This document shows, piece by piece, positions 20,811 through 48,203 of a stretch of DNA of 64,000 nucleotides. Each line of letters begins with the position of its first letter. Positions within the stretch are counted from its first letter, which is position 1. Below the pieces are notes generated by a model that was not told where the DNA came from, did not search any database, and was given only the letters and a program-made list of their open reading frames with translations. Origin of the DNA: Octopus vulgaris. Its lineage: Eukaryota. A program made the position numbers and the translations under genes. Location: NCBI GenBank assembly GCA_951406725.2, contig OX597820.1:122512001-122576000 (forward strand), written 5' to 3'.

Positions 20811-20829
20811 ATTATTATCATCATTATTA

Positions 20830-20875
<46 letters not shown>

Positions 20876-22540: not shown

Positions 22541-23522
22541 ACACACACACACACATATACACACATGCACTCTCTCTTTCTCTCTCACACACACACATTT
22601 TGTGTGTGTGTGTGCATGTATAGGTGTAAGGAAATAGACAATGTGAAGTATTTTAATAAGACTTATACAAACCTCGTCAACTTAATTAAAAAGAAATCAT
22701 GGAAATTCAAATCTGTTTCTGAATTGTCTGGAATTTTGGTGCAATTACTGCTATGGATGCCATTTAAAATGTTTCTTGCTGAATATTATTGTTGTTGTTG
22801 CTGCTGATATTGCTTGTATCATACATTCTGAAGAAAAAGATTGTCTAAGACAAAAGAAAAAAAAAACTGACGTAAGATTCTGCATTTCTATAAATTGCCA
22901 CTTTTGCCAAAATTTCTCCTTTTTCATGGGAATCTTCATATCTTTGCTTGGTGAACAGAGGAATGGAGGCTGAAGGTGGAAATGGTCAAAGTGCTGGCAT
23001 TGATGATGATGGTGTATGGCTCTGCCTAGAGAAATGGGTGTGAGAGTTTCAATCCCTACTTTCTCCCCTTCTCCTTCATGTCCACAATCTTTGCACCATC
23101 TGGTTACCTTACCTCCCTGTCACCCTCTATTCTGCTAGAGAAACTTGCATACCTACAACGTGCATGACTTGACCTTATAAGGGCATGCAACAAACTCTGC
23201 CTTGTATTTGATATCACCGAGGAAGCAAGTCAATTGGCTTGCAGAAACGCGTGTATGTTATTATTATGAAGCATAAAAATACTAATCCTTGATTTCTGCA
23301 TCTTTTATTATTTACATTATGTGTAAGAATGTGTGTGGGTGTATATACATGTATATATATATATATATGTATGTATAGGCACAGAGACACGCACATACAC
23401 ACACATGTTATTCTTAATCAACAGAAGTTATGAAATAACTCGTAGGTCAAGAGTTTCATGTATTGACATTTATCACATGCAGAAAACAGCCCTTGAGTTA
23501 CTTTGTAATTTCTGCTGCATGA

Positions 23523-23558
<36 letters not shown>

Positions 23559-23614
23559 ATGCGTGTGTGTGTGTATGTTTATTTACACATGTATATATAT
23601 TTAATTTTTTTTCT

Positions 23615-25005: not shown

Positions 25006-25423
25006 TTGCCCAGGAGCTAAACCTCAAAGGTTGACGCTCAGAGATCTAATACTGCTTGTTTCCACTTTTTCGAGATCAGTGACTTTCCATCACAAGAAAA
25101 AGTATATATCTATTTGCGTTGAGAATCATTTCCCATCACCAACCGGTGGTTGTCACATGCTGATGATGGGTCAATACCCAGAAACTCGGGTCCATGTGTA
25201 TCAAGTCAGGATGGAGATGGGATGGATGACTTCCTTTGCAAATAGTGAAAGGGCACAGATAGTGTGTAAATAGCCAGGTGGAGGAGATGTCTTCCTGAGG
25301 CTACAAGCTACAGAAGCATCAACCCTTAAGGGTTAGCATCATTTAGGTGGCAAATATACTTCACGATATATATATATATATATATATATCGTACATTTTA
25401 TATATATATATTTTTTTTTCTCT

Positions 25424-27060
25424 CTAGTTTCAGCTCAGAGCTGTGGTCATGCTGATATACCACCATTTTGCTACACTGTTATTAGTGAGAGCCTCCTCTA
25501 ACATGTGGCACTTGGTGTAGAATGGAGTTTGATGTAGCTACCCTCATTTGCATCTCTTGCTGTGAGGTAGGTTCATCTGGGACTCTCGACAGGAAGAGGT
25601 CCAGTTTTGATTTAAAAACACCTACATCTACTTTGTGCAGGTTCCTCAAGCTCTTTGGGAGAATATTAAAAAGCTGTGGGCCCCTGAAACCCAGGCTGTT
25701 GCAGTAACTGGTTCTGAAGCACAATGGTGTTGCTGGGATCGTTGGCACTATGCTGAGTCATCCCATTCAGGCATTAGTGTAGCTTTCAATGCCAAAATTT
25801 GGCACAATTCCTTCCAGGATCTTCCAGACATATATTACTGCATACCTCTCCTGTCTTCTCTCCAGGGAGTTGAGTCTTAGCTGTTTCAACCTTTCCCAGT
25901 AGCTGAGCTGTTGCAAAGAGACGATCTTCTTTGTGAATCTTCTCTGGATTGCTTCAAGGTCTGCTGTTAATTTCACACTGGTAGGTGACCATAGCTGTGA
26001 GCAGTAATCCAGGCGGCTGAGGACGAATGTCCCCCAGAGGACCAAAGTGGTTTCCTTATCTCTGGTTCTGAATGTTCTTAGGATCCATCCAGCCAGTCGT
26101 CTGCACTTTGTCACCATCCTGGTAATGTATACTTGGAAAGAGGTATCATCACTCATGTCGATACCCAGGTCCCTCACTGATTTAGGCTCTGGGATTGAAA
26201 TTCCCTGTGGACCAGTGTACCCTGTAAGTTTCATATTCAGTTTTGGATGCTGGTAGCACAGGGCTTGGAATTTTTCAGCATTAAACTGCATATTATTATC
26301 CTCAGCCCATCTGTAAATTGAATCCAACTCCTGCTGCAGGTGTGCAACATCGCTGGGTTCTGTATTTTCTGCAAGACTTTCATATCGTCTACATAGCTTA
26401 CAAGGGTGGCTTTCCGGGCACTTGAGGGCATATCTGAGAGGGCCACTACAAAAAGCAGTGGTCCCAAGACAGTGCCCTGTGGAACACTACTCACTATTTG
26501 TGTGTTCATAGAGGTGGCTCCATTAGTTACTACTGCCTAATTCCTATCTTTCAGAAAGTCAGGTAACCACTTTACAAGTTTTCCAGCTATGCGAAGATCA
26601 CACAGTTTGTGGCATATCATACCATGATCCACCTTGTCAAAAGCTTTTGCAAAATCAAGGTATATTACGTCCACATTTGATTTGTTGAGTAACTGCCTCA
26701 ACACCCAGTCATAATGTTGTAAGAGCTGGGTCAGGCAGCTCCTACCTGGTCGAAAACCATGCTGGGTATCACTCAGCAAGTTATGTTCTTCAAAGAATGC
26801 AATTAGTTTTCCTCTGACTATCCGTTCCATTACTTTGCTGATGTGTGAAGTCAAAGAGATAGGCCTAGAGTTTTTGGTATCTGCTTGCTAGTTTGCAATT
26901 TGCAAGAAAGCTCAGGAAGAGAATCTGGAGGGGTTTTGCCAGGACATGCTTACACGCTTTGAGGAGGATTGCTGGGAAACCACCAGGACCAGCAGTTGAG
27001 TTTGTGTCCACTTCATCTATGGCTAGTAGTATATCTCCTTTGCTAATGTCAATATATACA
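25424..27060 (-). mobile_element. CR1-group LINE RT fragment (about 1.6 kb)
   Basis: QHGFRPGRSCLTQLL, YLDFAKAFDKVDH, VPQGTVLGPLLF, SYVDD and YWERLKQL across ORFs 25482-27077. Confidence 0.92.
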
Positions 27061-27693
27061 AGCAACCCCCACCCCATCCAATGGACAGTGCTGAATCATA
27101 TCTTCTGAATAAAAAGCAATCAGTGTTTTCTTTTCATTAAAAAATAATTAAGCATGCCTTTATTTCAATAAAATTTTTGGTTTTGTTAAACAAAGTTAAG
27201 GCAAAAAAAAATGACTTCTTGAGAAATCAAAGTCTTTCCTTCCTTCCTGCCAAGTTTGAAGAAAATATCTCTTTTGCATCTTACTTTTTTGGTCTCTTAA
27301 AATATACTGCAATTTGTGGCATTATTTCAAGCCATCTGGCTTTTGATGCGCAAACTGCATGTGTATTTTTCTCGTGTACGCATAGTCTTGATCGCAACAG
27401 CTGATGTACTTGCGCATACAAATGCACGTTCCGACGGCTTTATCAATTACATTCTCACCTGGAATCGATTTTTGTAATTTTTTTCAAGACTTATACACAC
27501 TCTGATACCATCGGTATCTACATGTCAAATTTGAGCGCAATCAGATAGAGGCTGCCCGAGATCCTAGAAGACACACAGACAGACAGAATGGATTTTATGT
27601 TATAGATATAAATGGAGTTAAACGTTGTGTTATTCAAATCTTTTTATTTCCAAAATATATTTGAAAGAAAACACTGATGTGTTTGGTTTCTTT

Positions 27694-27781
27694 CTTTCCT
27701 GATGAAAAGATTGCATTGTTTTACATCATTTTATTCCTTCTGGAATAATACCAGTGTTTTCTTTGAAACATATGTCGGAAG
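27694..27781 (+). ncRNA. Type I hammerhead ribozyme motif with long stem II
   Basis: ctttc-CTGATGA(27699-705)-aaagattgcattg...cagtgttttcttt-GAAAC(27765-69)-atat-GTC(27774-76)-ggaag. Confidence 0.7.
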
Positions 27782-28004
27782 CAAAAAGATTTGAATAACA
27801 CTTGTGCTTAACTCCATTTATTTATTTATCTATGTTTACAAAATCATTTCACCAAAACCTGAACTTTCGATCTTTATAAGTAGGCTCTTATATCCTTGGT
27901 ACTTATGTGGATTTTTGCTACCCTGTTAACTATTTATTTGTTTTTTCCCTGTTATTTGTAAACATTGAAAAAAATACACTTACATTGATATATTTTAATC
28001 TATA

Positions 28005-28190
<186 letters not shown>

Positions 28191-28281
28191 TAATCCAAAC
28201 ACGAAAATACAAGGAGAAAACACAACAATGCGAGGACGTGGAACAAGTATAGTTTTATTGGACACTCAGGAAAGAAGGAGG

Positions 28282-28316
28282 GTTTAACGTTTCAAGCGGA
28301 GCTCTTCGTCAGAAAC
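28282..28316 (-). ncRNA. Minimal type I hammerhead motif (Penelope pLTR type)
   Basis: Minus strand reads gttt-CTGACGA-agagctccgctt-GAAAC-GTT-aaac, with a palindromic AACGTT stem III region. Confidence 0.6.
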
Positions 28317-28644
28317 ATAGGAAAAGGAAAGATCCAAAGAAGGGAAGACGGAGGGAAAAAAAATTGCCAACGGTACAATATATATGTATATATATAAACA
28401 ATTGCAGCATGGAAGGTGTTTATAAGCCATTTAAGAAATACACAAAAACTGTTAGATTCATTTCAACATTTACATTTAATTTGCGAAAATACTTTGTGTG
28501 TGTATATACTTTACATGTACCACATCCTCACGTTGTTGGTTTTCTTTTGTGTTTGTTCTTCTTTTTGGGATTTACTATACATATAAGTGTGTGTATATAT
28601 CTATGTGTGTATATATATGTTTATACATATGTATGTACATATAT

Positions 28645-29380
28645 CATCATCATCGTCATCATTTAGCATCTGTTTGTCTATGCTGGCATGGGTTGGATGG
28701 TTTGACCTGGGATGGGAAGCTGGGGGACTGCATCAGCTGCCAGTCTGATTTTGCATAGTTTCTACAGTTGAATGCCCTTCCTAACACCAACCACCCTGAG
28801 AGTGTAATGGGTGCCTTTTTACATGTCACTGGAATGGGCACCAGTTGCATGGCAGCAATGTCTGCCACAACTATGATTCCACTTGTCTTCAGAGCTCTCC
28901 CTTCTGAAACACAGCATTTTGCCAAAGGTCTTGGCCATTCGTCATTGCATCCTTGTATATATTTATATATAAAATATAAAATGGTGACAATTTACCCATT
29001 ACACCCTGTATATATATATATATATATATATATATCATCATCATCATCATTATTTAACGTCCGTTTTCCATGCTAGCATGGGTTGGACAGTTCGACTGGG
29101 GTCTGGTAAGCCATGGAGGCTGCACCAGGCTCCAGTCTGATTTGGCAATGTTTCTACAGCTGGATGCCCTTCCTAATGCCAACCACTCCATGAGTGTAGT
29201 GGGTGTTTTTTACATGCCACTGGCACAGGGGCCAGAGCAGACGGACAAACGGCCATGATTGGTTGGTGCTTTTACATGTTACCGACACAGACTCCAGTCA
29301 AGCGGTGCTGGTATCTGCCACATTCGGACGGTACTTTTTAAGTGTCACCGCATGGGTATCTTAACTACAATTTCCATTTG
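28645..29380 (-). mobile_element. Two RTE 3'-UTR fragments (about 28645-28950 and 29035-29380)
   Basis: (CAT)n followed by the family 3'-UTR (ccatgctagcatgggttggac in the second copy). Confidence 0.8.
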
Positions 29381-29415
<35 letters not shown>

Positions 29416-30503
29416 TTATACTTAATGTAATATTTACATATGTGTGTATAAACGCATGTGTGTGTATATATGTGTGTGAGAGAAGGATAACTTGTTTCTT
29501 CTTTTGTTATTGATAGTCTCCAAGAGACGGTTTGTTTTCATAGGGATCATACAAGGCTAATGTGTGGCTATTAGGGATTCAATGGAAGGGGGTTTTCTGC
29601 AGGAAATGAGACAAGAGTTGATTTAACCTGCTCAGTGGAAGTAATGCAAAGTAAATGATTATTCTTTGTCTGAAGCCAAAACTCAGCAAGGAGACAATGA
29701 TGTCATAAGCTAATTAATAGCGAAAGCTATTTTAAATAAAATCTAGTAATTAGATAAATTTTTTAAAGGCTTGAGTTTTACAGCAAAGAACACATTGAAA
29801 GATTTATGTGAAGCGAAATAGATTTCAGGTTATGGCATTGTGTAATGCAGTAATAATTTATTGGAAATTTCTTCTGAAGGTAAGTATTGCCACCACAGAA
29901 AAGTGGGAATGAATAATGCATTTTGGATATGTTTGGTGTGGTGGAAAGATTTTGTATAATTAAATGATGAGCCATTAGATTTTCTTTATTGATATGGAGA
30001 TTTTTGTATGTAGTATATTTTAAATTTTACTTTTTACATTTTGCTAACTCATAAATTTAGAAAAATTTAATATAAGTTCAATTTTAATGGAAATATCTAA
30101 AGGTATACATGTAGATAAAAATTTCTTCTGAGAATGAATTTGCCAACTTCCCCATTTTCTATGCATCAATCATGGTGAGTGAGTGAAATGAGGCAGAAGA
30201 AATATAATTTCAAAATATCTGCTGTCTCATGGATGATAACTAAATTTGGAGAGAAAACCATTCTTATTTAGAAAAATTGAAGCCAGATAAACTATGGGTA
30301 TATCTTAATTCAAACTTTCAAACAAATCTCAACACATTGACAATGATTGCAACTGGAGTATATTTTATTGCCATTTATTTTATTTTCTACTCCAAGTTCT
30401 TTAATTACAATGGAATAAAATGTATTATAGGTCTTCTTCATTCACATTTGAGAAGATATTCTATTGATATTATGCTTTGGTGGGTAATATTTTAGAGGAG
30501 CCT

Positions 30504-30589
<86 letters not shown>

Positions 30590-30590
<1 letters not shown>

Positions 30591-30943
30591 GAAATCGAAT
30601 TGAACCAGCCAGGATCCCTGGTCTGGTGGTACGTAAAAAGCACTATCCGACTCGTGGCCGATGCCAGCACCCCCTCGTTTGGCTTCCGTGCAGGTGGCAC
30701 ATAAAATACACCAATCCGACCGTGGCCGTTGCCAGCCTCACCTGGCACCTGTGCAGGTGGCACGTAAAAAGCACCCACTACACTCATGGAGTGGTTGGCG
30801 TTAGGAAGGGCATCCAGCTGTAGAAACACTGCCAGATAAGACTGGAGCCTGGTGCAGCCTTCTGGCTTTCCAGATCCCCGGTCGAACCGTCCAACCCATG
30901 CTAGCATGGAGAACGGACGTTAAACGATGATGATGATGATGAT

Positions 30944-30945
<2 letters not shown>
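30590..30945 (+). mobile_element. RTE 3'-UTR fragment within a (TA)n tract
   Basis: ggcgttaggaagggcatccagctgtag...ggacgttaaacgatgatgat, with (TA)n on both sides. Confidence 0.85.
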
Positions 30946-30981
<36 letters not shown>

Positions 30982-31769
30982 TACATACAGACAGACAGAT
31001 AGATATAGATAGATAGATAGGTAGATATATAGATAGGTAGGTAGGTAGATAGATAGATAGATATATAGGTAGGTAGGTAGGTAGATAGATAGACACATGC
31101 ATACATACACACACATGCATGCATGAACCTAGTGCAGGCTTAACGGTTATCTAGCAATAGCACGAGTACGCAGAAATTCCGGGATGATGTCCAGTGTGCT
31201 GAAAGACCCCTGGGAGTGAGGCACCCTTCAGCTTCTTTTGAAGCATGTCTCTAGGAGAAGGTCACTCTGATATAAAAACCAGATATGCAGGGAATGACAT
31301 TGGACATTTTAGGGATTTTTGGTGTGTGCTAGAGATCACAGCGCTACATACATATATGCATGTATATAATTGAAAAAGAAATAAATGTCCAAATGTCCTT
31401 TTTGTTTCCTCCAAATTGTTTTCAGTTATCGATTCACACCTGACAAATGTCCAAACACAAACCTGGAAGTATGTACGATACTGCTGTACTGCATAGCACA
31501 GGGTGGAATCTGAAGGTGGATGAGCTTTATACAGTACTCTGCTCTGGTCTTTACAGAATATACCATAACTATATATATATATATATATATATCATCATCA
31601 TCGTTTAACATATGCTTTTCATGCTAATATGGATTGGATGATATATATATATATATATATACCACCAAGTAAGTTAGGGGTTATTGATCCAACCCACTAA
31701 GGGATCATATCCAATATACTGGTGGTATAATACTCAAATTATTAATGCACAATATATATATATATATAT

Positions 31770-32081
31770 CACCGTGATCACCTGTGACCGACCAAGCTAT
31801 CAGATGTTGTTACACATCGCTGGTCACAATGCGTTCGCATTGTTTTTTAGCCTTTGAATGATGCCACCCCGCTGGCTAAGTGAGCTGGCCAACAGAAGAA
31901 AGAGTGAGAGAAAGTTGTGGCGAAAGAGTACAGCAGGGTTTGCCACCAATCCCTGCCAGAGCCTCGTTGGAGCTTTAGGTGTTATCGCTCAATAAACACT
32001 CACAAAGCCCGGTCTGGGAATCGAAACCGCGATCCTCCGACCGTGAGTCTGCTGCTCTAACCACTGGGCCATTGCACCTCC
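31770..32081 (-). mobile_element. tRNA-derived SINE (family E) in a (TA)n tract
   Basis: Minus strand ggaggtgcaatggcccagtggttagagc...gtttcgattccc. Confidence 0.8.
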
Positions 32082-32892
32082 ATATATATACATATATATT
32101 ACTTAGCCCCTTAATAAAGTAACAAATTCTAGATATGATAGTAACTGCACTGCTTATAGAAGCCAGTGATGTGGTTTTGATCATGTTACTTGTGCAAAAC
32201 TGAAACAGCTGATTAAGTTGCCTAGGGAGTCAATTTCCAGTTTGTTTTTAGCATCACTTTCCATATACTAACAATATTTTTATATGAATGCATCAACATA
32301 TCTAAACATTATTTGTGCAGAATAATTGCTAGCAGGTTAGTTGATGCACATAGCAATGGTGAAATGCCTTTTTTGTTTTTAAGATGCTACTTGCACAGGA
32401 AATAAGGAAGCAAGAATCTAAGCTTAAAACACACAGACAAAGAAATTAAATTTAAGCGAGGCATTATTAGGACATGTGTAAACATGATACAGGATTCTCC
32501 TCCCTATGGTGCCCCTTGCATTTGCACATTGGGTAGGAATTGGCCAAGCCCAGGGTTCATTTATTTGTTTATTTTCTGCAGCAATTTATATCTCGAAGCT
32601 TCTTTTTTATTGTGTAAAGGAGTGTGTGTGCTTGTATATTCTTTTCCACTCTTTCTCTTTCTCTCTTCTGTCTGTCTGTCTGTCTGTCTGTCTCCCCCCC
32701 TCTCTCTCTCATTCAGTTGTTGAGATTAATTGTCTGTGTTACTCTGTGTTTTGTGGGTGAAATTAAGCCAAATTATGAACCTACTAACATTAGCTAACTG
32801 GTATTGTAGTAATGAGTCTGCTTTAATTTTAGTGACATATCTAATTGCTGCCCGATGATGGTGATGTGTAATATTGTTGCAAAAGTCAATAC

Positions 32893-32950
<58 letters not shown>

Positions 32951-33708
32951 TGTGGGGGTAGGAATAGCTAGGGGTGGGTGGTTCTGGATGATGGCATATA
33001 AAGGACAGCTGCTACTACTACCAGTTCTGCTGTTGTTTAAGGGGATAAGAATTGTTTCATGCCAATTAATTAATCAATTAAATTAAATAATATAACCTCA
33101 CATGCATCCGTGTGTGTGTGTGTGTGTGTGTGGTGGTGTTTGTGTACAGGCCTGTTTGTAGTAATCAGGACAATGGTGTTTGCTTGGTGTAAAGTAGATG
33201 AAGATGATCATTAACGGGGCGGTGGTGTAGGCTTTGCTTATGTGATGTTTACAAAGGATCTTTTCTGTATATGACTGTCAAGATATAATGTAGCAGTGGT
33301 GATTGTAAGAGTTGTGCTCGTTGTGGTGGTCATTTTATTATGCAAGGGTAAGGCAATGATGACCACATTAGCTGATCATCTCCTTCAATATACTAACTCT
33401 GTTTAATGACATTGGTAGTGAAATTATTCATAATGGAATACAAGAGGATGTGTCCCATTGATGAAAATAGATGACAGCTTCATGGCCCCTAAACCAGCTA
33501 AAGCAACAGGGAAGTTATTCTTTAAAGGTTCAGACCCCCTACACACACAAACACTACACAATAAAAAAAGTCAGTTTTGTGAACAAAAACCAGGACAGTT
33601 TATAAGATTGTCAGAAGAGTATAAGAGAACATATAAACTTAAATACATGACTGGTATTTTACCAACTGAATGGGATCTGAAATTTGAATGTTAAGGGCCA
33701 TAATGAAA

Positions 33709-34115
33709 TCATCATCATCATCATCGTTTAACGTCCGCCTTCCATGTTAGCATGGGTTGGACGATTTTGACTGAGTGCTAGCGAGCCAGATGGCTGCACC
33801 AGGCTCCAATCTTGATCTGGCAGAGTTTCTACAGCTGGAAGCCCTTCCTAACACCAACCACTCCGATAGTGTAGTGGGTGTTTTTACATGCCACCTGCAC
33901 GGGGGCCAGTCAGGCAGCACTGGCAATGACCTCGCTCGAATCTTTTTACACGTGCCACCGGCACAGGTGTCAGTGAAGCGACATTGGTAACGATCACGCT
34001 CGAATGGTGCCCTTTTACGTGCCATGGGTACGGAAGCCAGTTGGCTGCTCTGGCAACGATCACGCTCGGATGGTGCTCTTGGCACCCTACTTGCACAGAT
34101 GCCAGTCATCGAATT
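33709..34115 (-). mobile_element. RTE 3'-UTR fragment
   Basis: Same family signature as 58842. Confidence 0.85.
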
Positions 34116-34709
34116 GCTTTTAATTCTTCAACAATACTGTTAGTAATGATAATTGATCAGACAATGTTAGGTAAACAAGCAGAGTTGGATGATTGCAGAA
34201 GTCTACTATACTCCACTGTGTTTAGCATGGTAAATCATTTCTGGAGTGGCTCAAATCTTCTTGGATTCCTCTTTATATTTCATTCCTCTCTGGGCCAGTA
34301 AAATAAGCATCTTTAATTCATCAGAATAAAGTCAATATTTAATATCCAATTTCTAAAGGTAACTCTCTGCCTCAGAAAAAAAAAAAAATAATAAAAAAAA
34401 ACAAAGAAAACAATCTAGAAAAAAGACAAAAAAATTGTGACTAAATGAAAGAGCCTGATAAAGAAATCAATATCAAAACAACAACTGCAGCGATGGTAGC
34501 AGCAGTGGCAGCAGCAGCAGCAGTATTTTGGTTTAGCTTTAAGCTACTGCTGCTTGTCTTGTTGTTGATCATGTGTTTTAGATGATTTAATTAATTTTAT
34601 TCGATGAAGTAGAGTTTCCAACTTTCCACTACTGAATACTCATCATTTATCGAATTATTGCGTCGATAATTTCATTATTTTAAACAATTTTATTTTTTAT
34701 TATTAGATG

Positions 34710-34743
<34 letters not shown>

Positions 34744-35377
34744 TAAATTGATGATAAAAAAAGTATTTTAAAATTTATTCACTTATGTTTATTAGTTTTT
34801 TTTCCTAAAAAATCTTTGCTTTAGAGAATTTTTTAAACTGCAAAACTAAAAGAAATATAATTGTATTCCTCTTTTAATGTTCAGGTTTTGTATCAGGCAA
34901 AGCAATATATCCATGTCACAAAGACAGTGTTGTGTGTCTCATAACAAACATTGTTGATACACTTGTTTTGAAGGTAGGCAAAAAAGAAGAATCGCCTTCA
35001 AAACATTGCCAGAGAGAATCAGATTGTTTTGGTGAACGGATCACTTGAGACTTGAGTAGTAAAACTCAACTCGTTAGTGGTGCCCTCACAGTGTCGTTTA
35101 CAAGTTTCAGTGGCTTTGGAACATCAGGGCCAGTTCTTCCCCTGCTGACTAATTCATAGTTTTATACATCCATCCATCCATCCATCCATTCTTATACAAG
35201 ATGAGGCATAAATAATGGTGATGACATATTTTTCATTATTGTGGAAAGAATATGTAAGGATCACTCTTTATGGTTTGTCTATCCACTCTGTGTAGAAACC
35301 AGTATAACTGGAGCACAACCATTCATTTACAATAGAGAATGGCAATGAACTAAAACTTTGGCCCTTGCCACAAATAG

Positions 35378-36092
<715 letters not shown>

Positions 36093-36497
36093 CCTTTATA
36101 TCTTTTACTTGTTTCATTCATTAAACTGTGGCCATGCTGGGGCACGATCTTGAAGAAGTTTGTTTTTAAAACCTGGTACTTACTCTGTCAGTCTCTTTTG
36201 ACAAACTACTAAGTTATGCAGGACATAAATACACAAACAATGGTTGTCACATGGTGGTGAGGGACAAACATAGACACAAACCCGCAACCCACACACAGAA
36301 ACACACACGCACATACATACATATATACACATGCATGCAGTGAACTTATTTCAGTTTCCATTTTCCAAATCTACTCTTCCACTAACAAGGCTTTGATAAG
36401 GCAGGAAACGCTTGCCCAAGGTACCATGCAGTAAAACTGAAACTGGCACCAAGTTGTTGAGAAGCAAACTTCAAACCACACAGCCATGCCTGCACCT
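36093..36497 (-). mobile_element. SINE family A, diverged
   Basis: cttttacttgtttca...accacacagcca. Confidence 0.7.
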
Positions 36498-37014
36498 ATT
36501 GTGAATATATACATAATATATAGACCAGATTCTGTGTCTGCTTTGGTTTCTGTGACTGGATGCCCTTCTTAATGCTAATCCCTGATTGTACTTGGTGTTT
36601 TGTATGTGAGAACATGGGCCCCAAACCTGGCACACCACTCCTTTATCTGACCTGTGCTTCAGCACTTGGCAATACATGATGTCATACTAAAGATGCAATC
36701 CATGTATGACCCTCATAAGGGCAGACTGCACCAGCAAACTTAGCCTCAGACACGAAAACTAGAAATACAAGCTATAAATATGCCTGAATTGAATGTGAAT
36801 ATCTGAGAGAGAAAGAGAAGGTGAGACAGGAAGCAGTATTGCATGCCCTTCCCCCTCCAGCCTTATACCCCTTAGGCACTTAAACTTGGTTACTGTGACT
36901 TGCACCTCTCATCCACCTGAAGATGTGATTTCCTATGCATGCCTTTCCCATAAGGCATATGCGTTTATTTATCAATCTGTCTGTCTGTCTCTTTCTCTCT
37001 CTCTCTCTCTATGT

Positions 37015-37290
37015 ATGTGGCTGGTGCCAGTGCCACTTTGACTGGCTTTTGTGCTGGTGGCACATAAAAAGCACCATCTGATCGTGGTCAATGCCAGCCT
37101 CCTCTGGCTCCTGTGCTGGTAGCACGTAAAATCACCCACTACACTCTCGGAATGGTTGGCATTAGGAAGGGCATCCAGCTGTAGAAACACTGCCAGATCA
37201 GACTGGAGCCTGGTGCAGCCTCCTGGATTCCCAGACCCCAGTTGAACTTTCCAACCTATGCTAGCATGGAAAACGGACGTTAAACAATAA
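37015..37290 (+). mobile_element. RTE 3'-UTR fragment, tail-to-tail with the copies at 37462 and 37653
   Basis: Same family signature. Confidence 0.8.
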
Positions 37291-37405
37291 CCATGATGAT
37301 GATATGTATGTAGAGAGGGAGTGAGATATATAATTAATTCAAAAAACGGGGAAAAAGGACAAGAAAAAAACAACGCGAGGATGTGGTACATGCAAAGTAT
37401 TAACA

Positions 37406-37461
<56 letters not shown>

Positions 37462-37465
<4 letters not shown>

Positions 37466-37620
37466 TCATCATCATCATTTAACGTCCGCTTTCCATGCTA
37501 GCATGGGTTGGACGGTTCAACTGGGGTCTGTGCAAGCTGGAAGGCTGCACCAGGCCCAGTCAGATCTGGCAGTGTTTCTACAGCTGGATGCCCTTCCTAA
37601 CGCCAAGGAAGGGCATATAT

Positions 37621-37655
<35 letters not shown>

Positions 37656-38325
37656 TCATCATCATCATTTAGCGTCTGCTTTCCATGCTAGCATGGGTTG
37701 GACGGTTCAACTGGGGTCTGTGAAGCTGGAAGGCTTCGTCAGGCCCAGTGGGGCCAGATCTGGCAGTGTTTCTACGGCTGGATGCCCTTCACCGGCACGG
37801 GGGCCAACCACTCCGTGAGTGTAGTGGGTGCTTTTACGTGCCACCCGCACAGGTGCAAGACAGAGCTGGCAAACGGCCACGAACGGATGGAGCTTTTACG
37901 TGTCACCGGCACGGGGGCCAGGCGAGGCTGGCAACGGACACGAACGGATGGTGCTTTTACGTGCCACCGACACGAGGGCCAGACCTGGCAAACGGCCACG
38001 AACGGATGGTGCTTTTACGTGTCACCGGCATGGGGGCCAGGCGAGGCTGGCAACGGACACGAATGGATGGTGCTTTTACATGCCACCGACACAGGGGCCA
38101 GACAGAACTGGCAAACGGCCACGAACGGATGGTGCTTTTACGTGTCACCGGCACGGGGGCCAGGCGAGGCTGGCAATGGACACGAATGGATGGTGCTTTT
38201 ACGTGCCACCGACACGGGGGCCAGACAGAGCTGGCAACGGCCACGGATGAATGGTGCTTTTACGTGTCACCGGCACGGGGGCCAGGCGGGGCTGGCAGCG
38301 GACACGAACGGATGGTTCGCTTAAC
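37462..38325 (-). mobile_element. Two RTE 3'-UTR fragments; the second has an expanded internal tandem repeat
   Basis: (CAT)n signatures at 37462 and 37653. Confidence 0.85.
37827..38316. repeat. Minisatellite of 8 units of about 61 bp alternating ABABABAB
   Basis: Units begin ggtgcttttacgtg. A = ccaccgacac...cagacagagctggc; B = tcaccggcac...caggcgaggctggc. Confidence 0.9.
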
Positions 38326-38410
38326 CACAGCTGATGATGATGATGATGACGATATATATATATATTTATATATATATATATATATAATCCAAAAAGTATA
38401 GTATTAAATA

Positions 38411-38518
38411 TCCATCACAGCTGATCTTACCAATCAGTTTCCTGTAAAGAATACAATGGAATGTTAGGTAACAATCCGATTATATAACTTTACGCTCATC
38501 AGAGATAGCTGATATGGA
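38411..38518 (-). ncRNA. Type I hammerhead ribozyme motif with long stems I and II
   Basis: Minus strand reads tccatatcagctatct-CTGATGA-gcgtaaag...ctttacag-GAAAC-tgattg-GTA-agatcagctgtgatgga. Confidence 0.7.
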
Positions 38519-38691
38519 AGGGAATATAATCGGATTGTTACCTAACACTCCATTCACCTCTTTACGTGATTGGTAAGATCAGGTGTGACGGATATTTAAT
38601 ACTCTACTTTTAAGATGATCTAACCACTCTACTAACGGATATATGAATGCATCACATCCCTGACTTATGATCTCTTAGATGACTCACATAC

Positions 38692-38730
<39 letters not shown>

Positions 38731-38860
38731 TTTATATATACATATATATATATTCATATATACATATATTCATATATATATATACATACATATATATACA
38801 TATATATATACACACACACACACACACACTATATACATATACACACATATATATACATAT

Positions 38861-38912
<52 letters not shown>

Positions 38913-38914
<2 letters not shown>

Positions 38915-39043
38915 CGTAAAGTGTATTAGCCATCTGAATGTGGCTAGCCACTGGGGGTGGGGTGTTACTGATGCTTTTAGCCCCAGGCGATCACCCCACC
39001 CCCAGTAGCTAGCCACATTCAGATGGCTAATACACCTTACGTT
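38913..39043. repeat. 52-bp inverted repeat (2 mismatches) with a 27-nt loop
   Basis: 38913-38964 versus 38992-39043. Confidence 0.92.
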
Positions 39044-39087
39044 GTCGAGCGTTTACTGTTTATATCTCGTTCAGAGATTTATTATTG

Positions 39088-39127
<40 letters not shown>

Positions 39128-39136
39128 TATATAATA

Positions 39137-40024
39137 CAGGGTGTGATGGGTAAATTGTCACCATTTTATTTTTTTATTTTGTGTTTGTGCATTGTTTGTC
39201 TTTAATTTTGTTGACTACATAGTTTAGTAAAGTCAGTTGGGAACTGTCTGTGAGAAAAACAGCACCGTGACACTATTCACTCTGCCAGAAATTTGGAAAT
39301 GACATACTGTACTGTTTGGCATTTGTGCCAGAAGCTCTAATTGGAACATTTCAGAGTGTTTTGGGGTCAGTCTGAGGACTTGTACAATCTGAGGTCATGT
39401 ACCGAGAAGGATAAAAATCAAACATCCAGTCAACATCATGATGTTTGGAGTGATCACTAGTGATGGTGAGATTATGTCTCCTTTCATCTTCCCACATAGC
39501 TTCAGACTCAATACGGGGGTCAACATCAAGTGCCTGGAGGAGGTGATGCTGCCCTGGGTCAAGAGGGTGGCAGCTGGAAGACCCTATTTCTGGCAACAGG
39601 ACTCTGCACCATGCCACACAAACAGGAGAACCCAGTCATGGTTGTCAGACAATTTCTACGACGACATCAACCCTAACATCTGGCCACCTAACTCGCCAGA
39701 CTGCAAACCCTTTGATTATTATGTGTGAGGTACAGTTGAGTGAGAAACCAACAAAACACCTTATAATTCCAAAGATGAATTAAAGGCAAGGATTACGACA
39801 GCATTCACCAACTTAAACAAGAAGACCGTTCCAGAAGTGTTGCAGGAGATTCCAAAGTCGTCTGGAGGCCATGGTTGAAGCCAATGGCAATTTTGTTGAA
39901 TAAATTTACTCTTTAGTATTTCAAGATATTTTAAAGTAATTTTGGTGAATATATGTTAAAACGAGATGTCAGGGTAATTTTCATTTTTGTGTAATTTAGA
40001 CTACAGTTTATTCACCACACCCTT
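39137..40024 (+). mobile_element. Internally deleted DD37D (maT-type) Tc1/mariner transposon
   Basis: Termini TA|CAGGGTGTG...CACACCCT(T)|TA. ORF 39438..39728 has WQQD-(37 aa)-D: QQDSAPCH...WPPNSPDCKPFDYYV. Confidence 0.85.
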
Positions 40025-40057
40025 TACACACACACACACACACACCCTATACACACA

Positions 40058-40131
<74 letters not shown>

Positions 40132-40812
40132 CATATTTATGTTTGCACACATCCAACTTTAGACACAATAAATGTGTTTCTAAGCTTCAAATTTGTTAAA
40201 GAGATATTTGGCATGTGTCCATTCTTCTTTGTATCTATACAAATTTCATAGAAGCTCTTAAAAATGTCTCCGATACCCATAGACATCCAATCAGCTCCCT
40301 TTGCATTGATATTTATTGATTTAAATTCAGTACACAAAATATTATAGCTGGACTGGCCTGTATCAAATAAGAAAATCATATGAAATTAATAACAACATTG
40401 AAATATTAATAACAAGAAATATTAGAAGCCATGATAATGATGATGATGATGATGAGGAGGAGGACGAGAAAAACATGACCCAGTAGTAATAACAAGAGAA
40501 ATGCTGGAAAATGCCTTGGCAAACAATGGAAGCAACTCAGCTTTCCGTTCCTAAATCATTTGTGCAGGATTCTTATGAGAGCTCAAAATCCCTCGTGGAA
40601 GCGTCATCCAACCAAAGTACAAATATATGGGAAACTACTACCTGTGTCATCTCTTGTGAAAGGTAGGAGAGTCCAGTCACCAGCTACGCCAATGATGCAA
40701 AAGTAGTGGATATCAACTCATTTCTTGTTTTTGTAAAATGCATCATAAATGTTCGATAATTATTTACATTATTTACATTTGACAGATATTTGTCTTCATC
40801 TTGTTTGTTGTT

Positions 40813-40858
40813 AACATAACGTTTCAGCTGATATACCCTCCAGCCTTCACCAGGTGTC
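40813..40858 (-). ncRNA. Degenerate minimal type I hammerhead motif
   Basis: Minus strand reads gacac-CTGGTGA-aggctg-gagggtatat-cagct-GAAAC-GTT-atgtt. The core carries an A-to-G substitution. Confidence 0.5.
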
Positions 40859-40922
40859 TTGGGGAAATTTTGAATAATGTAAATAATGTACATAATTCCT
40901 CATCTCTTAAATATAGAACTGT

Positions 40923-41900
40923 ATGTTCAATAATATTGAAATCTGGGCACTGTGGTGCCCAGATAAGATGTTCAACTTCCCTAGAATGTTCCTCGTGCCA
41001 TTCAGTAACAACTGTAGCTGTGTGTGTTGGTGCATTATCATCCTAAAAGATTGTGTTTCCCTCCGGAAACAGTTCCGCAACCATAGCATGAATGTGATCA
41101 GATAAAATGCTGAAATAATCTTGGCTATTGATTCTGCCATGAAGGGAAACTACTGGCCCAGTGGATTTCCAAGATATAGATCCCCCCAGATCATCACAGA
41201 TCTCCATGTTTAACAGTTTCGGTCAAATGCTTCTTTTGGCGGTCTCCATGCATATACTTGGCCAGTGGATGGAAAGGAAGTAAAAGATGACTCGTCCGAG
41301 AAAATAACATTCTTCAACTTCTCTAGGGACCAATTCTGTAGGTTTTTACTCCACTCTAAACGCTTTGCAACGTTTGCTTTTGAAAGTAGTGGTTTTCTGC
41401 TTGCAGCCCTCCCGTGAATTCTAGCTTTGTGCAGCTCCCGGCGAACAGTTTTTGTGGAAACTGGGTTCTCTAGGTGGTCATTAAGCTCTGCAGTAATTTT
41501 GGGAGCTGTACTTTTGTGATCCTTTCTAACAATTCATGTAAGAGTCTGATGGTCCCTATCTGAAAGTTTTGGTTTTCTTCCAGAGTTTTGTTTCGACAAG
41601 GAGGTTTTTTCCCTCTTTCTCAAAGGCTGTCATTACTTTCAAGGTAGTACTTCTTGATACACCAAACATTTTGGCTGTTTTTGCTATGCTAGTGCCTGCC
41701 ATATGAGCACCAACAATCTGACCTCTTTGAAAGTCAGATAGATCTGTCATTTTAATGAGTTTAAATTACCTTTTACTCATGATATCTGGAAAGAAACATC
41801 AATTTTGATAAAACATATTAAGCAACACTAATAATAAATAAAAAAAAACAAAAAATAAACAAGCTTTTGATGGTTTTATAGATATTTCAAAATTATGATA
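40923..41900 (-). mobile_element. Tc1-type (DD34E) transposase pseudogene
   Basis: MTDLSDFQRGQIVGA at 41750; DDNAPTHTA...WAPQCPDFNIIEH at the low-coordinate end; stops and frameshifts present. Confidence 0.85.
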
Positions 41901-42023
41901 TATGTATATATATATATATATAACGTCCGTTCTCCATGCTAGCATGGGTTGGACCATGCTAGACCATGGGTTGGACCATGCTGGACCATGGGTTGGACCA
42001 CTATATATATATATATATATATA

Positions 42024-42216
42024 GGCATAGGAGTGGCTGTGTGGTAAGTAGCTTGCTTACGAATCACATGGTTCCAGGTTGGTTCAGTCCCACTGCATGG
42101 CACCTTGGGCAAGTGTCTTCTACTATAGCCTCAGGCCAACCAAAGCCTTGTGAGTGGATTTTGTAGATGGAAACTGAAAGAAGCCCATTGTATATTTGTG
42201 TGTGTGTGTGTGCATG

Positions 42217-42247
<31 letters not shown>

Positions 42248-42470
42248 ATGTATGCACGTTTGTGTCTGTGTTTGCCCCCCCCCTCCCAACATCACTTGAC
42301 AAACGATGCTGGTGCGTTAACGTCCCCGTAACTTAGTGGTTCAGTATAAGAGACCGATAGATTAAGTACTAGGCTTACAAAAAATAAGTCCCGGGCGCAA
42401 TTTGCTCAACTAAAGGCAGTGCTCCAGCATGACCCCAGTCAAATGGCTGAAACAAGTAAAAGAGTAAAGA
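42024..42470 (+). mobile_element. SINE family A
   Basis: Similar to the copy at 4299. Confidence 0.88.
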
Positions 42471-42656
42471 TATACATATATATGTATGTATATATAAATA
42501 TATATATAAATTATGATATATATACACACACAAACACATACATGTAGATACATAAACACATACATGTATATATATATATAACACATACATATATATATAT
42601 ATATATCCATATATATATATACACACACACACCCACCCACACACACACATATATAT

Positions 42657-42687
<31 letters not shown>

Positions 42688-43655
42688 AAAGTATATATAT
42701 AAAATATATATATAGGTGTTTCACAAAATCGATCATGGGAGCGATGACGTCCAACTTCGTTATATCTATGATATTATCCCCCCCACCCCCCACCCGCTAT
42801 TTAATGTTGCATTACTCGAGAGATGGCCTGTTGCAGCACTGAAGTGATTTGCATTCAAACTTACTCTTCCCCCAAATGGCTTGTATATGCAGAAAATAAT
42901 TTTCCTCCCATTAAGTCATTGCATTGAGCAGAGTGACTGTTTTCCCTCTTCTACATCTTTGCTTTTCGGTAGAAGTGAAACGTTTTTAAAGCAGAATAAA
43001 TAAAATGCTTGATTTGTGAACGTTTAGATAACTCTATATAAGTTTGGATTTTGAGTTGGAACACGGATGTTTTATTTTGAAAGGGTAGCTGAGTCGGGTG
43101 GAATGTTGTTACAGCGAAATATTTATCCTAAACATCAGCAATGCAGGTGAATCTGTTTGAAAGTAGATTGAAATCTAGGATGCAGGTTTCACATCACCTG
43201 AGCTCCTCTTCTTGATGAGAGTAGCACTGTTGAAACTTGATAGAATAATCAGTGGAGGCCATATCAAGAAAGCTCCAAGCATCAGTTTACACTTCTACAG
43301 TACACTGTTACATTAGACTAACTGTAACAATGAAGGAGCTCTTTGTAGTCACTATAACTGCTAGAAATGGCTGTCAGATTTCTCTCAAATGAAGCCTAAC
43401 CTTTTTAGGAAATGATGGACACATTGCATAATGGGAACCAACAGAAGAGATGATTCCAGCTGGATTGTCTTTGGTCATGTGTCTACCGAAAGAAGATTGG
43501 TCTGGAGCAAAACATCAACAGCATAGACTCTAGACCAAGCTATATTTGTGGGTCTTTTATTTGGCTCTTTTATGTTGAATCTGCTATAAAATGATAGCAA
43601 AATCTCATCCAGCCATCTTGGGAAAGCTACATCAGGTAATGGTTATCTTACATAA

Positions 43656-43885
43656 GGCGGTGAGCTGGCAGAAACGTTAGCACGCCTGGCGAAATGCTTA
43701 GCGGTATTTCGTCTGCGTTATGTTGTGAGTTCAAATTCCACCGAGGTCGACTTTGCCTTTCGTCCTTTCAGGGTCGATAAATTAAGTACCAGTTACGCAC
43801 TGGGGTCGATGTAATCGACTTAATACCTATGTCTGTCCTTGTTTGTCCCCTCTGTGTTTAGCTCCTTGTGGGTAATAAAGAAATA
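43656..43885 (+). mobile_element. tRNA-derived SINE family B, full length with target-site duplication
   Basis: ggcggtgagctggcagaa...gagttcaaattcc. The direct repeat aggtaatggttatcttacataag is at 43634-56 and 43885-907. Confidence 0.92.
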
Positions 43886-45042
43886 GGTAATGGTTATCTT
43901 ACATAAGCTTTAAAAAGATGATTGGTCAATGTTTGACTGACTTTGATGGTTGATCCGATCAATCAGGTGCTTGCAATTAAATAACAACAATGCCATGACC
44001 CCCACCCCCAACTCCATCACCACTCTTCTACACTGCACTATATTAAATAAAACAAATGAAAGACTAGTTTATGGCAGTGTTTCGAGGTTGTTGTCATACC
44101 AGAATATTTCCTTTGCCTCGATTCTATAAAAACCGTTTTATTCCTCTCTCGACAAAAACAACAGAATCAGCACAAACAACTGCAACTACCAGCAATACAA
44201 ACAACAACAACACCACCACAAAGCATAACATTCTTCTGTTTGTTGTTTAACATGTATCTTCATGTCTTTATATATATTTTTTTATTTGTAGTTTTCTATC
44301 CTCCCCCATCCCGACCCCCCCACATTCATATTGATTTCTGCATTCCCACCCCCACCCCCCTGCTTACACCCCCTCTCCTACCAGCCAGCCAGCCAGCCAA
44401 CCAACCAACCAGACCAGCACTATTGATTACTATTTGATCAGTCATGCAAACAATTAGTATTGAATAGTTAATGTTCAAGCTGAAAGAAGAACTGGAAGGT
44501 TTTTTTTGGTTTTTTTTCTTTCGGGGGTGGGGGGATGGGAGGGGGCAGTGCTGTTTTGTTGCAGTTGGTGTTGTTTTCAATATCAATGGTTAATGTGATG
44601 TGTTGGCCATCATGCTGCTGATGACTGTGCAAATGCTTGTAGTATGGTAGCACCATTAGACCTTGGATTGGTTTCCATACTAAATGAAGACTAAAATGGT
44701 TTGGTGGCCGTCACCAGTATCGTCCTGTCACTGCTGCTTCAGTTGTTCTTTGGAAAAAATTCTTGGTAGGCACAAGAGGTTTTAGAGAATGTTCTAGTAA
44801 TGTTAATATGTGTGTATGTGGTGGTGGTGGTGGGGGGGGTAGAGTGATGGTTGATTGAATTATTTCTTTTTTGTTCTTCTTTGAAAACAGGCATGAACAA
44901 CACAACATTATTTATCACATAGACCCAGTTTAATTCATCCTTATATGGAGGTTTCTATCAGCAGGTTTCATTATATAAAACTACGAACCTATGTTTTGTG
45001 TGTGCTTAGTATTTTCAAAATATAGGTTCATAGTCTGTGTAG

Positions 45043-45096
<54 letters not shown>

Positions 45097-45146
45097 ACTA
45101 AGGACTCCGTGTGGGCAGTCATCTAAAAGGTTTTGTTTGTCATAAG

Positions 45147-45245
45147 TTCCTTGTCTTTCCTGATGAGAAGACGGCATAATGCACTCTTTATTCCTTCGGA
45201 ATTAAGAATATGCCGTCTTTGAAACATGTGTCGACAATAAAGGAA
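45147..45245 (+). ncRNA. Type I hammerhead ribozyme motif with long stem II (same family as 27694)
   Basis: CTGATGA at 45160-66; 12-bp stem II gaagacggcata/tatgccgtcttt; GAAAC at 45221-25, then atgt, then GTC at 45230-32. Confidence 0.75.
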
Positions 45246-45278
45246 TTTTGTTAAATTGTCGTTCGACTCCATTCTTTC

Positions 45279-45315
<37 letters not shown>

Positions 45316-45322
<7 letters not shown>

Positions 45323-45597
45323 TGCCCCCTCGTTATCGCGTATGGCCTATTGCACGAAGCTTAACTGTTACTGGAGCTGTGATCGAATGTGACTTTTTAG
45401 CACAACCAAAGATCTACAATGTCTTGTATAGAATTGGCAACTAAAACCTTTACCGGTAATAGCCAGCTGTAGTTGTAACTGGGCTTCATGTACCTTTGCA
45501 TGTTGTTTAAGTCCTCCTGCCGAATTACACTCTCTTCCACATGCCCAACAGATATGATTAGTATGGTGTCTAACACCACCACCAGTGGCCAGGTTGT

Positions 45598-45600
<3 letters not shown>
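45316..45600 (-). mobile_element. LINE (probably RTE-type) C-terminal fragment with C2H2-like fingers, between microsatellites
   Basis: [23 protein letters not shown]...[22 protein letters not shown] followed by a stop and a short tail. Confidence 0.55.
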
Positions 45601-45671
<71 letters not shown>

Positions 45672-46070
45672 TACACACACACATATACATATACATACAC
45701 GCACATATATATATATATATACACAGACACACACACATACACACATATATATATACCTACATATATCTATCTATCTATCTATCTATATATATATATATAC
45801 ACACATACATACACACACACACACACACACTGATTACTTGTTTGGTCAAGAGAAGAAAATATATTTAATACCAAAATATATCACTGAAAGACTGAAAAAC
45901 AATCAACGAAATGTATAAAATGCCCACGTGGGGGCAGGGCAGGCGATATCAAATTAAAGAGGAGGGGAATGAAAAGAGAAAAGATGCTGCCAGTTTGAAG
46001 AACAACAAATGGTAACGGATATTGCAATACTCTCTTTTACTCTTTTAAGAGTAAAAGAGAGTATTGCATA

Positions 46071-46650
46071 GGTGCAGGAGTGGCTGTGTGGTAAGTAGCT
46101 TGTTTACCAACCACATGGTTCTGGGTTCAGTCCCACTGCGTGGCACCTTGGGCAAGTGTCTTCTACTATAGCCTCGGCCCGACCAAAGCCTTGTGAGTGG
46201 ATTTGGTAGACGGAAACTGAAAGAAGCCTGTCGTATAAATGTATATACTCTTTAAACTCTTTAACTTGTTTCAGTCATTTGACTGCGGCCATGCTGGAGA
46301 ATCACCTTTAGTCGAGCAAATCGACCCCGGAACTTATTCTTTGTAAGCCCAGTACTTATTCTATCAGTCTCTTTTGCCGAACCGCTAAGTGACGGGGACG
46401 TAAACACACCAGCATCGGTTGTCAAGCAATGCTAGGGGGACAAACACAGACACACAAACATATACACACACTTATATATATAAATACATATATACGACAG
46501 GCTTCTTTCAGTTTCCGTCTACCAAATCCACTCACAAGGCATTGGTCGGCCCGGGGCTATAGCAGAAGGCACTTGCCCAAGATGCCACGTGGTGGGACTG
46601 AACCCGGAACCATGTAGTTGGTTAGCAAGCTACTTACCACACAGCCACTC

Positions 46651-46686
<36 letters not shown>

Positions 46687-46881
46687 TGTGTGTGTTTGTG
46701 TTTGTCCCCCTAGCATTGCTTGACAACCGATGCTGGTGTGTTTATGTCCGCGTTACTTAGTGGTTCGGCAAAAGGGACCGATAGAATAAGTACTGGGCTT
46801 ACAAAAGAATAAGTCCCGGGGTCGAGTTGCTCGATTAAAGGCGGTGCTCCAGCATGGCCGCAGTCAAATGACTGAAACAAG
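46071..46881. mobile_element. SINE family A (+) with a second full copy nested in reverse (about 46247-46653)
   Basis: 5' half at 46071-46235, inverted copy, then 3' half at 46690-46881. Direct repeat gatattgcaata at 46018 and 46881. Confidence 0.9.
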
Positions 46882-47841
46882 ATATTGCAATAAGGACATT
46901 TTATTTAAAAGATGCTGTCTTCTTCTTCTTCTGACGTTTCCCAATGGCTTTTCGTTTATTGTGAAATTGATTGAGCTGAAGATATTTGATGTGAATGGTT
47001 AATGTCCAAGCTGAAAGAAGAACTGGAAGTTTCTTTTTGTTCTTTTTTTCTCTTTCGGGAGGATGGGGGAGCTGTATTGTTGCAGCTAGTGTTGTTTCCA
47101 ATATCAATATGCAATTGTTCTCCCTCTCTTGCATCTCGTTATGTAAATCCCTACATAAACTGTAAACCGTCTTTCTAATATCCCTCTTATCAAATGAACA
47201 AAATCAGCCGAGTTTCTCATTGATGTCCAGGCAATGAGAACCTTTTTCTGTACGTATTCTGTGTCCAGGGCCGGAGCATTGCTGACTTGTAGAGTTATAT
47301 ATCTAACCCCTGCTGCCATATGTAAGAGGATGGATTCAGATCTCAGATGACTCTATTGTAAAGATCATACTAGCTCCTCCCTTTTATGAACCAGTAGGCA
47401 GTCATTGTCCAGTGACTCTGATGAAAGGTGTTATGTGGTAAACAAGCTTGAAAGGGTCGAAGGAAAACTTCCTCTTTGGTCTAACTCTCATCAAGTTCTC
47501 TTGAAAAGAAATATGGGAATGGAGAATGAAGTGTTGCCTCCTAGCAAATTTGTTGAAAGGTGGGTGAATGATGAACCTAAATCCAAATGACCTGGCCTGC
47601 CGTGAGTATGTACCTGTAGATTAGGGTTTTCAACAATAGCCCATGGAGGTCTCTCATTTTGGGGAATTTTGTTTTGTTCTTTTCATTTTCTACATGTTTT
47701 TTATGTAATACCACACTGTATTGTCCTATACTGTTCTCGATTTTGTCAACCCCTGGAGTTAATAGAGAAAGTAGTTTTATTTACAATTAAATGGAGTTGA
47801 TGTTATGAGCCAAAATTATTCCTATTATTATTATTATTATT

Positions 47842-48172
47842 CAGTAGTATAATTTTTATATCATGATTTCACTTCACTACCGAGCACAGCTCTGTGTGCC
47901 TTGGGTATGTGCTGTGATTTGTTGTGATGCACTGATGGTTACTGTATGGAAAGTGTTCTGCATAGGATGTGTGCAGTGCCCAGTAGTGCAATTTTCTGTA
48001 TGGTATATGTGTTTGTAAGTCCTGGTGTTTTTGTTATGTATTTGTCTGAATATTTTTTAATCATATCTAATGCACCTACTATGAGAGGAATTGTTTCTGT
48101 TTTTAGATTCCACATTCTGGTTACCTCTATTTCCAGGTCTTTGTATTTTGAGAGTTTCTCCATTTCTTTTAT
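47842..48172 (-). mobile_element. 5'-truncated R4/Dong-like non-LTR retrotransposon (RLE endonuclease C-terminus plus 3' UTR) in a (TAA)n tract
   Basis: ORF 47939..48286 contains KEMEKLSKYKDLEIEVTRMW...PLIVGAL...QKIALLGTAHILCRTL, typical of the R4-clade C-terminus. (TAT)n lies on both sides. Confidence 0.8.
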
Positions 48173-48203
48173 CATTATTATTATTATTATTATTATCTTA
48201 CAG

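Follow-up and report, generated by a model that had tools for sequence, protein, structure and literature searches.

The window, a 64,000-nt stretch of the Octopus vulgaris genome (assembly GCA_951406725.2, contig OX597820.1, positions 122,512,001 to 122,576,000), contains an insertion between (TA)n tracts in an intron of a teneurin gene (Table 1). This is very probably a decayed two-armed 3'-end insertion of a Hydra-clade Penelope-like element (PLE), carrying a type I hammerhead motif with a 54-nt stem II that is likely inactive here. The locus is a real but ordinary dead PLE end, and its ribozyme belongs to a known kind, as a variant with a long arm.

Table 1. Features of the insertion and of the host intron, in window positions.
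Feature	Position	Strand	Basis or remark
CUGAUGA core (C3-A9)	38496..38502	-	sequence; DNA CTGATGA 38502-38496
Stem II, 54 nt	38442..38495	-	first two pairs broken in this copy (G10.1.G11.1)
GAAA core and C15.2	38437..38441	-	sequence (GAAAC 38441-38437)
Stem-loop III (10 nt; pairs with itself, G.U included)	38429..38438	-	predicted dimer helix
GUA triplet	38428..38430	-	sequence and hammerhead numbering; predicted cut between 38428/38427
Stem I, 5' strand	38503..38518	-	fold
Stem I, 3' strand	38411..38427	-	fold
Arm 1, 5'-truncated PLE 3' end with the entire hammerhead motif and the family's short 3' end	38385..38527	-	family alignment
ATAT, 4-nt microhomology common to both arms, head-to-head junction	38524..38527		alignment
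Arm 2, inverted copy	38524..38619	+	84% identical to arm 1
PLE tail, ~68 nt, arm 2 only	38620..38687	+	comparison of family 3' ends
(TA)n target tract, left	38352..38386		sequence; similar right tract from near 38696
Teneurin intron, ~30.7 kb, approximate ends	17475..48197	+	mapped exons
Teneurin exons	17103-17474, 48198-48503, 52945-54618, 63371-64000	+	four mapped in the window

The hammerhead motif and the fold-back

All core elements of a type I hammerhead (CUGANGA, GAAA and NUH) were found in this copy, and the minus-strand CTGATGA, GAAAC and GTA given in the initial annotation match the sequence exactly. Stem II, estimated there at about 55 nt, measures 54 nt, and its base is mismatched as described, with a G.G and a C.A mismatch followed by six pairs. 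Among 58 full-length family copies, the 10.1:11.1 position is G-C in 38, G.U in 15 and another mismatch in four. G faces G solely in this copy, breaking the G10.1-C11.1 closing pair. Stem I had been called long; its pairing is present, but the family majority is shorter near the core, and the extra pairs here come from one substitution. CpG decay accounts for a seemingly compensatory A-U pair in stem I, which falls on two CpG sites. Stem-loop III pairs with itself at 10/10 positions when G.U is allowed. Its duplex is predicted at -6.6 kcal/mol in this copy and -12.4 kcal/mol in the family majority, versus -0.9 kcal/mol for the majority hairpin.

This copy differs from the family majority at 8 of 136 bases (5.9% divergence). 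The whole insertion is predicted to fold at -136.4 kcal/mol, compared with -83.6 kcal/mol when the ribozyme fold is enforced, and the three-helix hammerhead fold is not what this copy is predicted to prefer. The ribozyme is likely dead twice over, because the closing pair is broken and the fold-back is predicted to exceed the ribozyme fold in stability by ~53 kcal/mol; the earlier suspicion that the copy may be inactive is on these grounds probably right. With the stem II apex ~22 bp from the core, the canonical contact between loop II and stem I would be out of reach. Contigs from three presumed-RNA runs and one run of unknown type did not cross the junction of this copy, which carries no weight either way. 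An Rfam search of this locus gave no hammerhead match at E <= 10. The 12 loci searched gave none either, two short-stem loci among them, and the miss is therefore not specific to long stems. For the whole window, the 150 of 282 Rfam rows listed contained just microsatellite-driven miRNA noise.

The arms had been placed at 38392-38486 and 38525-38611. They are indeed inverted copies, but the insertion is longer and extends over ~38385-38687 with the tail included. Arm 2 begins within stem II and so lacks CUGAUGA. Its GAAAC, already reported missing, was lost through a 6-nt deletion after 38566. The 220-nt region folds as a single hairpin (-119.5 kcal/mol, z -19.7; 0/200 shuffles as stable). This fold-back is a known inverted, 5'-truncated PLE arm and is separate from the ribozyme. 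The 3' ends of the family are bimodal (48 short, 32 long and 3 between; n=83), and 13 of 15 two-arm loci combine one short with one long arm. Alignment folding of 30 long-end copies, a single crude test, found no conserved hairpin at these 3' ends.

So strong a hairpin could also be a MITE-like element or a microRNA precursor, mobile or functional as one piece, with the hammerhead motifs incidental. A MIR171_1 match was obtained, at 31 bits against the 48 needed, and an inverted arm is present at 13 of the first 30 family loci, retrieved with a query that favoured such loci. This reading is highly implausible and largely refuted already. The other 17 loci are single-armed, the arm junctions vary from locus to locus, each arm is simply the 3' end of an element with an ORF, and hammerhead cores are enriched 100-fold over the control.

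The fold-back as a PLE insertion may stem from a cut in (TA)n whose two ends both acted as primers for reverse transcription on element RNA, at two sites ~68 nt apart. The two truncated cDNAs would then have been joined at the 4-nt microhomology. The anole PLE PAc is reported to extend both DNA strands in vitro from two RT start sites (Frangieh 2024, PMC11167929), and self-priming on an antisense template has been argued instead of two primers (Arkhipova 2013, PMC3846280). The inverted-pLTR and tail insertions described for EN+ PLEs (PMC3846280; PMC11167929) share with this locus the head-to-head inverted truncated arm, the overlap or microhomology junction, the tail on one arm and the AT-rich target. 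Their tails are given as 30-40 nt compared with ~68 nt here, and, unlike in those insertions, both arms here are cut down to 140-165 nt. Inverted truncated PLE arms with a one-sided tail are also described by Craig 2021 (PMC8557442).

Near the insertion, a GC-rich tandem array of ~61-bp units, part of a repeat, lies just to the left (37800-38330), and another short fold-back, unrelated, occurs between (TA)n tracts at 38915-39045.

Family A and its Penelope-like element

The copy belongs to family A, which has at least 374 copies by a 27-nt signature (0 in the control) and a sister subfamily. The 58 full-length copies diverge from their majority sequence by a median of 8.8%, and the hammerhead core is intact in 37 of them. 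Folded without constraint, the majority forms all three hammerhead helices (-37.8 kcal/mol versus -35.7 with the core held open). Its stem I consists of 2 bp, an internal loop and two 5-bp helices, its stem II is predicted at 22 bp (8+7+3+4) and its stem III has 3 bp. Conservation at the core exceeds that of the remaining non-CpG positions (0.97 vs 0.93, p 0.0003), which we read as selection on the source elements.

Covariation was assessed in 63 copies, those free of indels among the 87 extracted. Between the subfamilies, two pairs of stem II covary, 39:80 (AU 30, GC 27) and 36:83 (UA 34, CG 14, UG 13); the remaining frequent double changes are at CpG sites. Neither of the two covariation measures that resist relatedness, one counting pairs and one counting types, reached significance (253 and 142 of 500 shuffles). 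The majority sequence of the sister subfamily breaks three distal pairs of stem II, and one of its proximal pairs forms only with a bulge shift. From these comparisons the 8-bp base of stem II is supported, and its distal part weakly so. The stability of the family A stem II hairpin is ordinary (z -1.3, one copy tested). For the family, the majority fold and two covarying stem II pairs show the type I arrangement, in which three helices surround the core and stem I is the open end. The initial annotation had turned on whether other copies preserve the core and the pairing, and they do.

Longer family A copies contain the end of an RT-endonuclease ORF on the same strand, ~0.57 kb upstream of the hammerhead, and align to residues ~120-710 of an intact 717-aa relative. 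The suspected linkage to a PLE ORF was confirmed: of 20 loci retrieved through the upstream body, 19 have the hammerhead directly behind it. A same-strand hammerhead also lies 340-842 nt downstream of 33 of 42 EN C-terminal pieces, with overlap among some of the loci. The CxCX5C linker, CxxC and CxH are present in the family A translations L035, L042 and L052. RWK and DKT lie outside the truncated family A copies; the intact family C (40% identical) has both, and family D carries RWR/DKT. Among the 150 matches listed, no intact family A ORF was found. Pfam gave no match for these PLE ORFs, and their domain names are based on published Hydra-clade motifs and on RT motifs. L070, whose hammerhead corresponds to the published one of Hydra-1_oBim, shows 47% identity to the family A ORF piece, and a (TA)n insertion site, as in the Hydra clade, is present at this locus. 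The motifs given for the Hydra clade are the CxCX5C linker, CxxC, CxH, RWK and DKT (Craig et al., 2021, PMC8557442), and by its motifs family A is probably a Hydra-clade PLE.

Three other assignments were considered and rejected. Nematis was dropped, as the published Nematis linker differs and the Hydra motifs fit. Naiad_Ovul is marked HHR_half_core, but its sequence, read by eye, showed no long-stem type I motif. A non-LTR retrozyme was rejected because family A is ORF-linked and its loci contain no head-to-tail arrays.

Published Hydra-clade elements such as Hydra-1_Obim resemble family A in the CxCX5C, CxxC and CxH motifs, the (TA)n target, the sense 3' type I hammerhead and the palindromic stem III (PMC8557442). 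They differ in stem II, which by our count does not exceed ~26 nt in any of the 26 Hydra entries of File S2 (PMC8557442), compared with a span of 54 nt in family A and as much as 100 nt in its sister families, and in the unit, described as <3 kb in the same source versus 5.6 kb in family D. The minimal or dimeric PLE hammerheads (PMC4209133; Lunse et al. as cited in PMC6765202) share the pLTR location and the type I topology. As described in PMC4209133, they are also alike in the palindromic stem-loop III, the larger helix II (7-8 bp) and the close opposite-strand pairs. Unlike those (PMC4209133), family A has no extra base between A9 and G10.1, a 3-bp stem III with a stem II predicted at ~22 bp, and a stem I lengthened by two 5-bp helices.

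In the source element, the ribozyme would fold as a three-way junction. It would cut after GUA as a dimer formed through the self-complementary stem-loop III, possibly aided by the element's protein. A self-complementary stem-loop III and a dimer design have been reported for PLE hammerheads (Cervera 2014, PMC4209133; Weinberg 2019; Perreault 2011), and the PAc hammerhead is reported to require protein (Frangieh 2024, PMC11167929).

Two related families are young. Family C (L061-L068, L073, L075) has open frames of up to 717 aa. The inspected copies have a deviant core (CCGAAGA, U at 11.1), and many other genome copies with the same 31-32 nt stem II have a standard core. Family D (L116-L122) is Hydra-like, with a 5.6-kb hammerhead-to-hammerhead unit, an 85-nt stem II, a ~2-kb 3' UTR and an asparagine-rich insert. 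In the three full copies seen, its ORF is in two frames, split between the RT and the endonuclease. At the family D 3' end (L116:793-1219), 19 of 27 listed differences in run X1, presumed to be RNA, are T>C, compared with 3/10 and 4/10 in two other runs. The excess, seen in assembled contigs, is A>G on the element strand and resembles A-to-I hyper-editing of fold-back RNA.

Long stem II hammerheads in the octopus genome

A strict pattern, with G10.1, C11.1 and C15.2-G16.2 fixed, was counted across the 2.8-Gb genome by stem II span and compared with a control. It matched 910 cores with a stem II of 5-22 nt (91 in the control), 3,399 of 23-41 nt (83), 12,035 of 42-70 nt (120) and 2,363 of 71-100 nt (54). 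Cores with a 42-100 nt stem II thus total 14,398 versus 174 and are spread across many families. The strict pattern leaves out minimal cores with an extra base after A9. Short cores of this kind number 11,193 in the forward count versus 1,902 in the control, the reverse count being inflated by overlapping matches. As they are abundant too, the idea that hammerheads with long stems predominate was discarded; these form a large class in this genome, not the dominant one.

Forty regions were picked by eye for diversity from the first 100 matches listed for each of the 5-22, 42-70 and 71-100 nt bins, with three chance-looking ones omitted. Together with the earlier loci they supplied 103 long cores, which group at 62% identity into 29 clusters, not all of them independent. 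The initial annotation's statement that long stem II appears in at least two families therefore holds for many more. At pattern-free positions, pairing was found in 91 of 116 cases for stem II (null 33), 95 of 116 for stem I (null 37.5) and 51 of 58 for stem-loop III (null 20), none of these values being reached in 10,000 cross-cluster shuffles. Of the 29 clusters, 25 have a fully self-complementary stem-loop III and 20 a stem II hairpin with z <= -2. Four clusters (A, D, L112, L098/L114) have Hydra-type ORF pieces in the 1.5-5 kb of sequence retrieved, and family B gave one unconfirmed RT match. A metagenome scan yielded four loci, one of which has a hammerhead (L161), with a short stem II.

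Two clusters include ORF-less tandem arrays. L109 and L110 are retrozyme-like, with 594-bp and 535-bp units and one long-stem hammerhead per unit, and the L110 array terminates in an inverted copy. They are retrozyme-type tandem arrays with a long stem II (cf. PMC7229834). Animal non-LTR retrozymes as described (PMC7229834; Li et al. 2026 preprint) likewise carry type I hammerheads in PLE-derived repeats. Family A is ORF-linked and dispersed, unlike the tandem non-coding retrozyme monomer (PMC7229834).

The long stem II could be a selected functional domain, and thus a distinct hammerhead architecture, serving as a binding site for the PLE protein or providing an internal-loop contact in place of the loop II-stem I interaction. 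The excess of strict cores of 42-100 nt, the stable hairpins in 20 of 29 clusters and the 85-nt stem II kept in near-identical full-length copies of the young family L116-L122 agree with such a role, as does the reported dependence of the PAc hammerhead on protein (PMC11167929). Families A and B also share a 54-nt span, an equality that drift does not predict, but they have no sequence in common. Stem II length runs from 14 to 100 nt, distal pairs are broken between the subfamilies of family A, and stem II is at most ~26 nt in the published Hydra-clade rows (PMC8557442) and is likewise short in L161, the hammerhead locus from the metagenome scan. In addition, the related families of L106, L113, L101 and L128 all retain 13 bp at the base of stem II, with spans that run from 55 to 77 nt through (TAC)n-like repeats. 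Growth of the apex by simple repeats over a kept base favours tolerated drift of stem II length, and we consider a selected arm unlikely. These observations suggest that stem II length variation is tolerated drift, in which the base alone would be constrained.

It is doubtful that octopus PLEs and their retrozyme derivatives evolved a distinct class of long-arm dimeric hammerheads, with the arm as a module for protein docking or dimer geometry. Such a class would comprise more than 14,000 copies in dozens of families, with a stem II of 42-100 nt unseen by standard descriptors, a proposal to which we give a low probability.

Spike-moss PLE-X1 (Craig 2021 File S2, PMC8557442), flagged there as deviating, has a ~53-nt stem II region of 9 bp and a 35-nt loop, and is a direct precedent for the stem II length. 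Unlike the thousands of copies here, the PLE-X1 cases listed are isolated and belong to Chlamys-related EN-minus plant elements (PMC8557442). In viral type I hammerheads, a "long helix II" refers to 6-8 bp in the account of de la Pena (PMC13725137). Long-stem-II PLE hammerheads in octopus were not found described in a literature search of mostly open-access sources. The core search described by Craig 2021 used 7-17 nt spacers (PMC8557442). Short-spacer searches would overlook motifs that, in this genome, are of the same order in number as the short type, and cephalopod ribozyme counts are therefore likely too low. Young, near-identical families with 31-, 54- and 85-nt stem II form a natural series on PLE hammerhead function, which also addresses the role of stem II beyond its base.

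The host teneurin intron

The initial annotation called the hammerhead antisense. This is correct relative to the + strand teneurin intron, but within its own element the motif runs in the sense direction. As part of the host pre-mRNA (+ strand), the insertion amounts to no more than a hairpin of ~220 nt (-125.9 kcal/mol) and has no hammerhead core motif. Its place within the intron, the stability of this hairpin and the A>G-like excess in a related family in one presumed-RNA run could suggest that the copy affects teneurin, either by cleaving an antisense RNA or by altering splicing as an intronic hairpin subject to editing. We consider such an effect very improbable. The + strand has no core, the divergence of this copy (5.9%) is near that of other dead copies (median 8.8%), and the copy shows CpG decay together with the broken G10.1-C11.1 pair. 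Similar copies are scattered by the hundreds genome-wide, and the nearest mapped teneurin exon is ~10 kb away.

Other hammerhead motifs in the intron are sense to the teneurin pre-mRNA. One, at 25160-25192 (+), has a 14-nt stem II. Another, at 27699-27776 (+), has a 59-nt stem II, its own fold-back and A-U at 10.1:11.1, and a third, at 45170-45242 (+), has a 54-nt stem II and G.U at 10.1:11.1. The copies at 27.7 and 45.2 kb have 73% identity to each other over 93 nt. The copy described here had been judged unrelated to them, and blastn gave no match above 8 nt. The window also contains a LINE-type reverse transcriptase fragment at 26240-26887 (-) and a Tc3-like transposase fragment at 41213-41533 (-).
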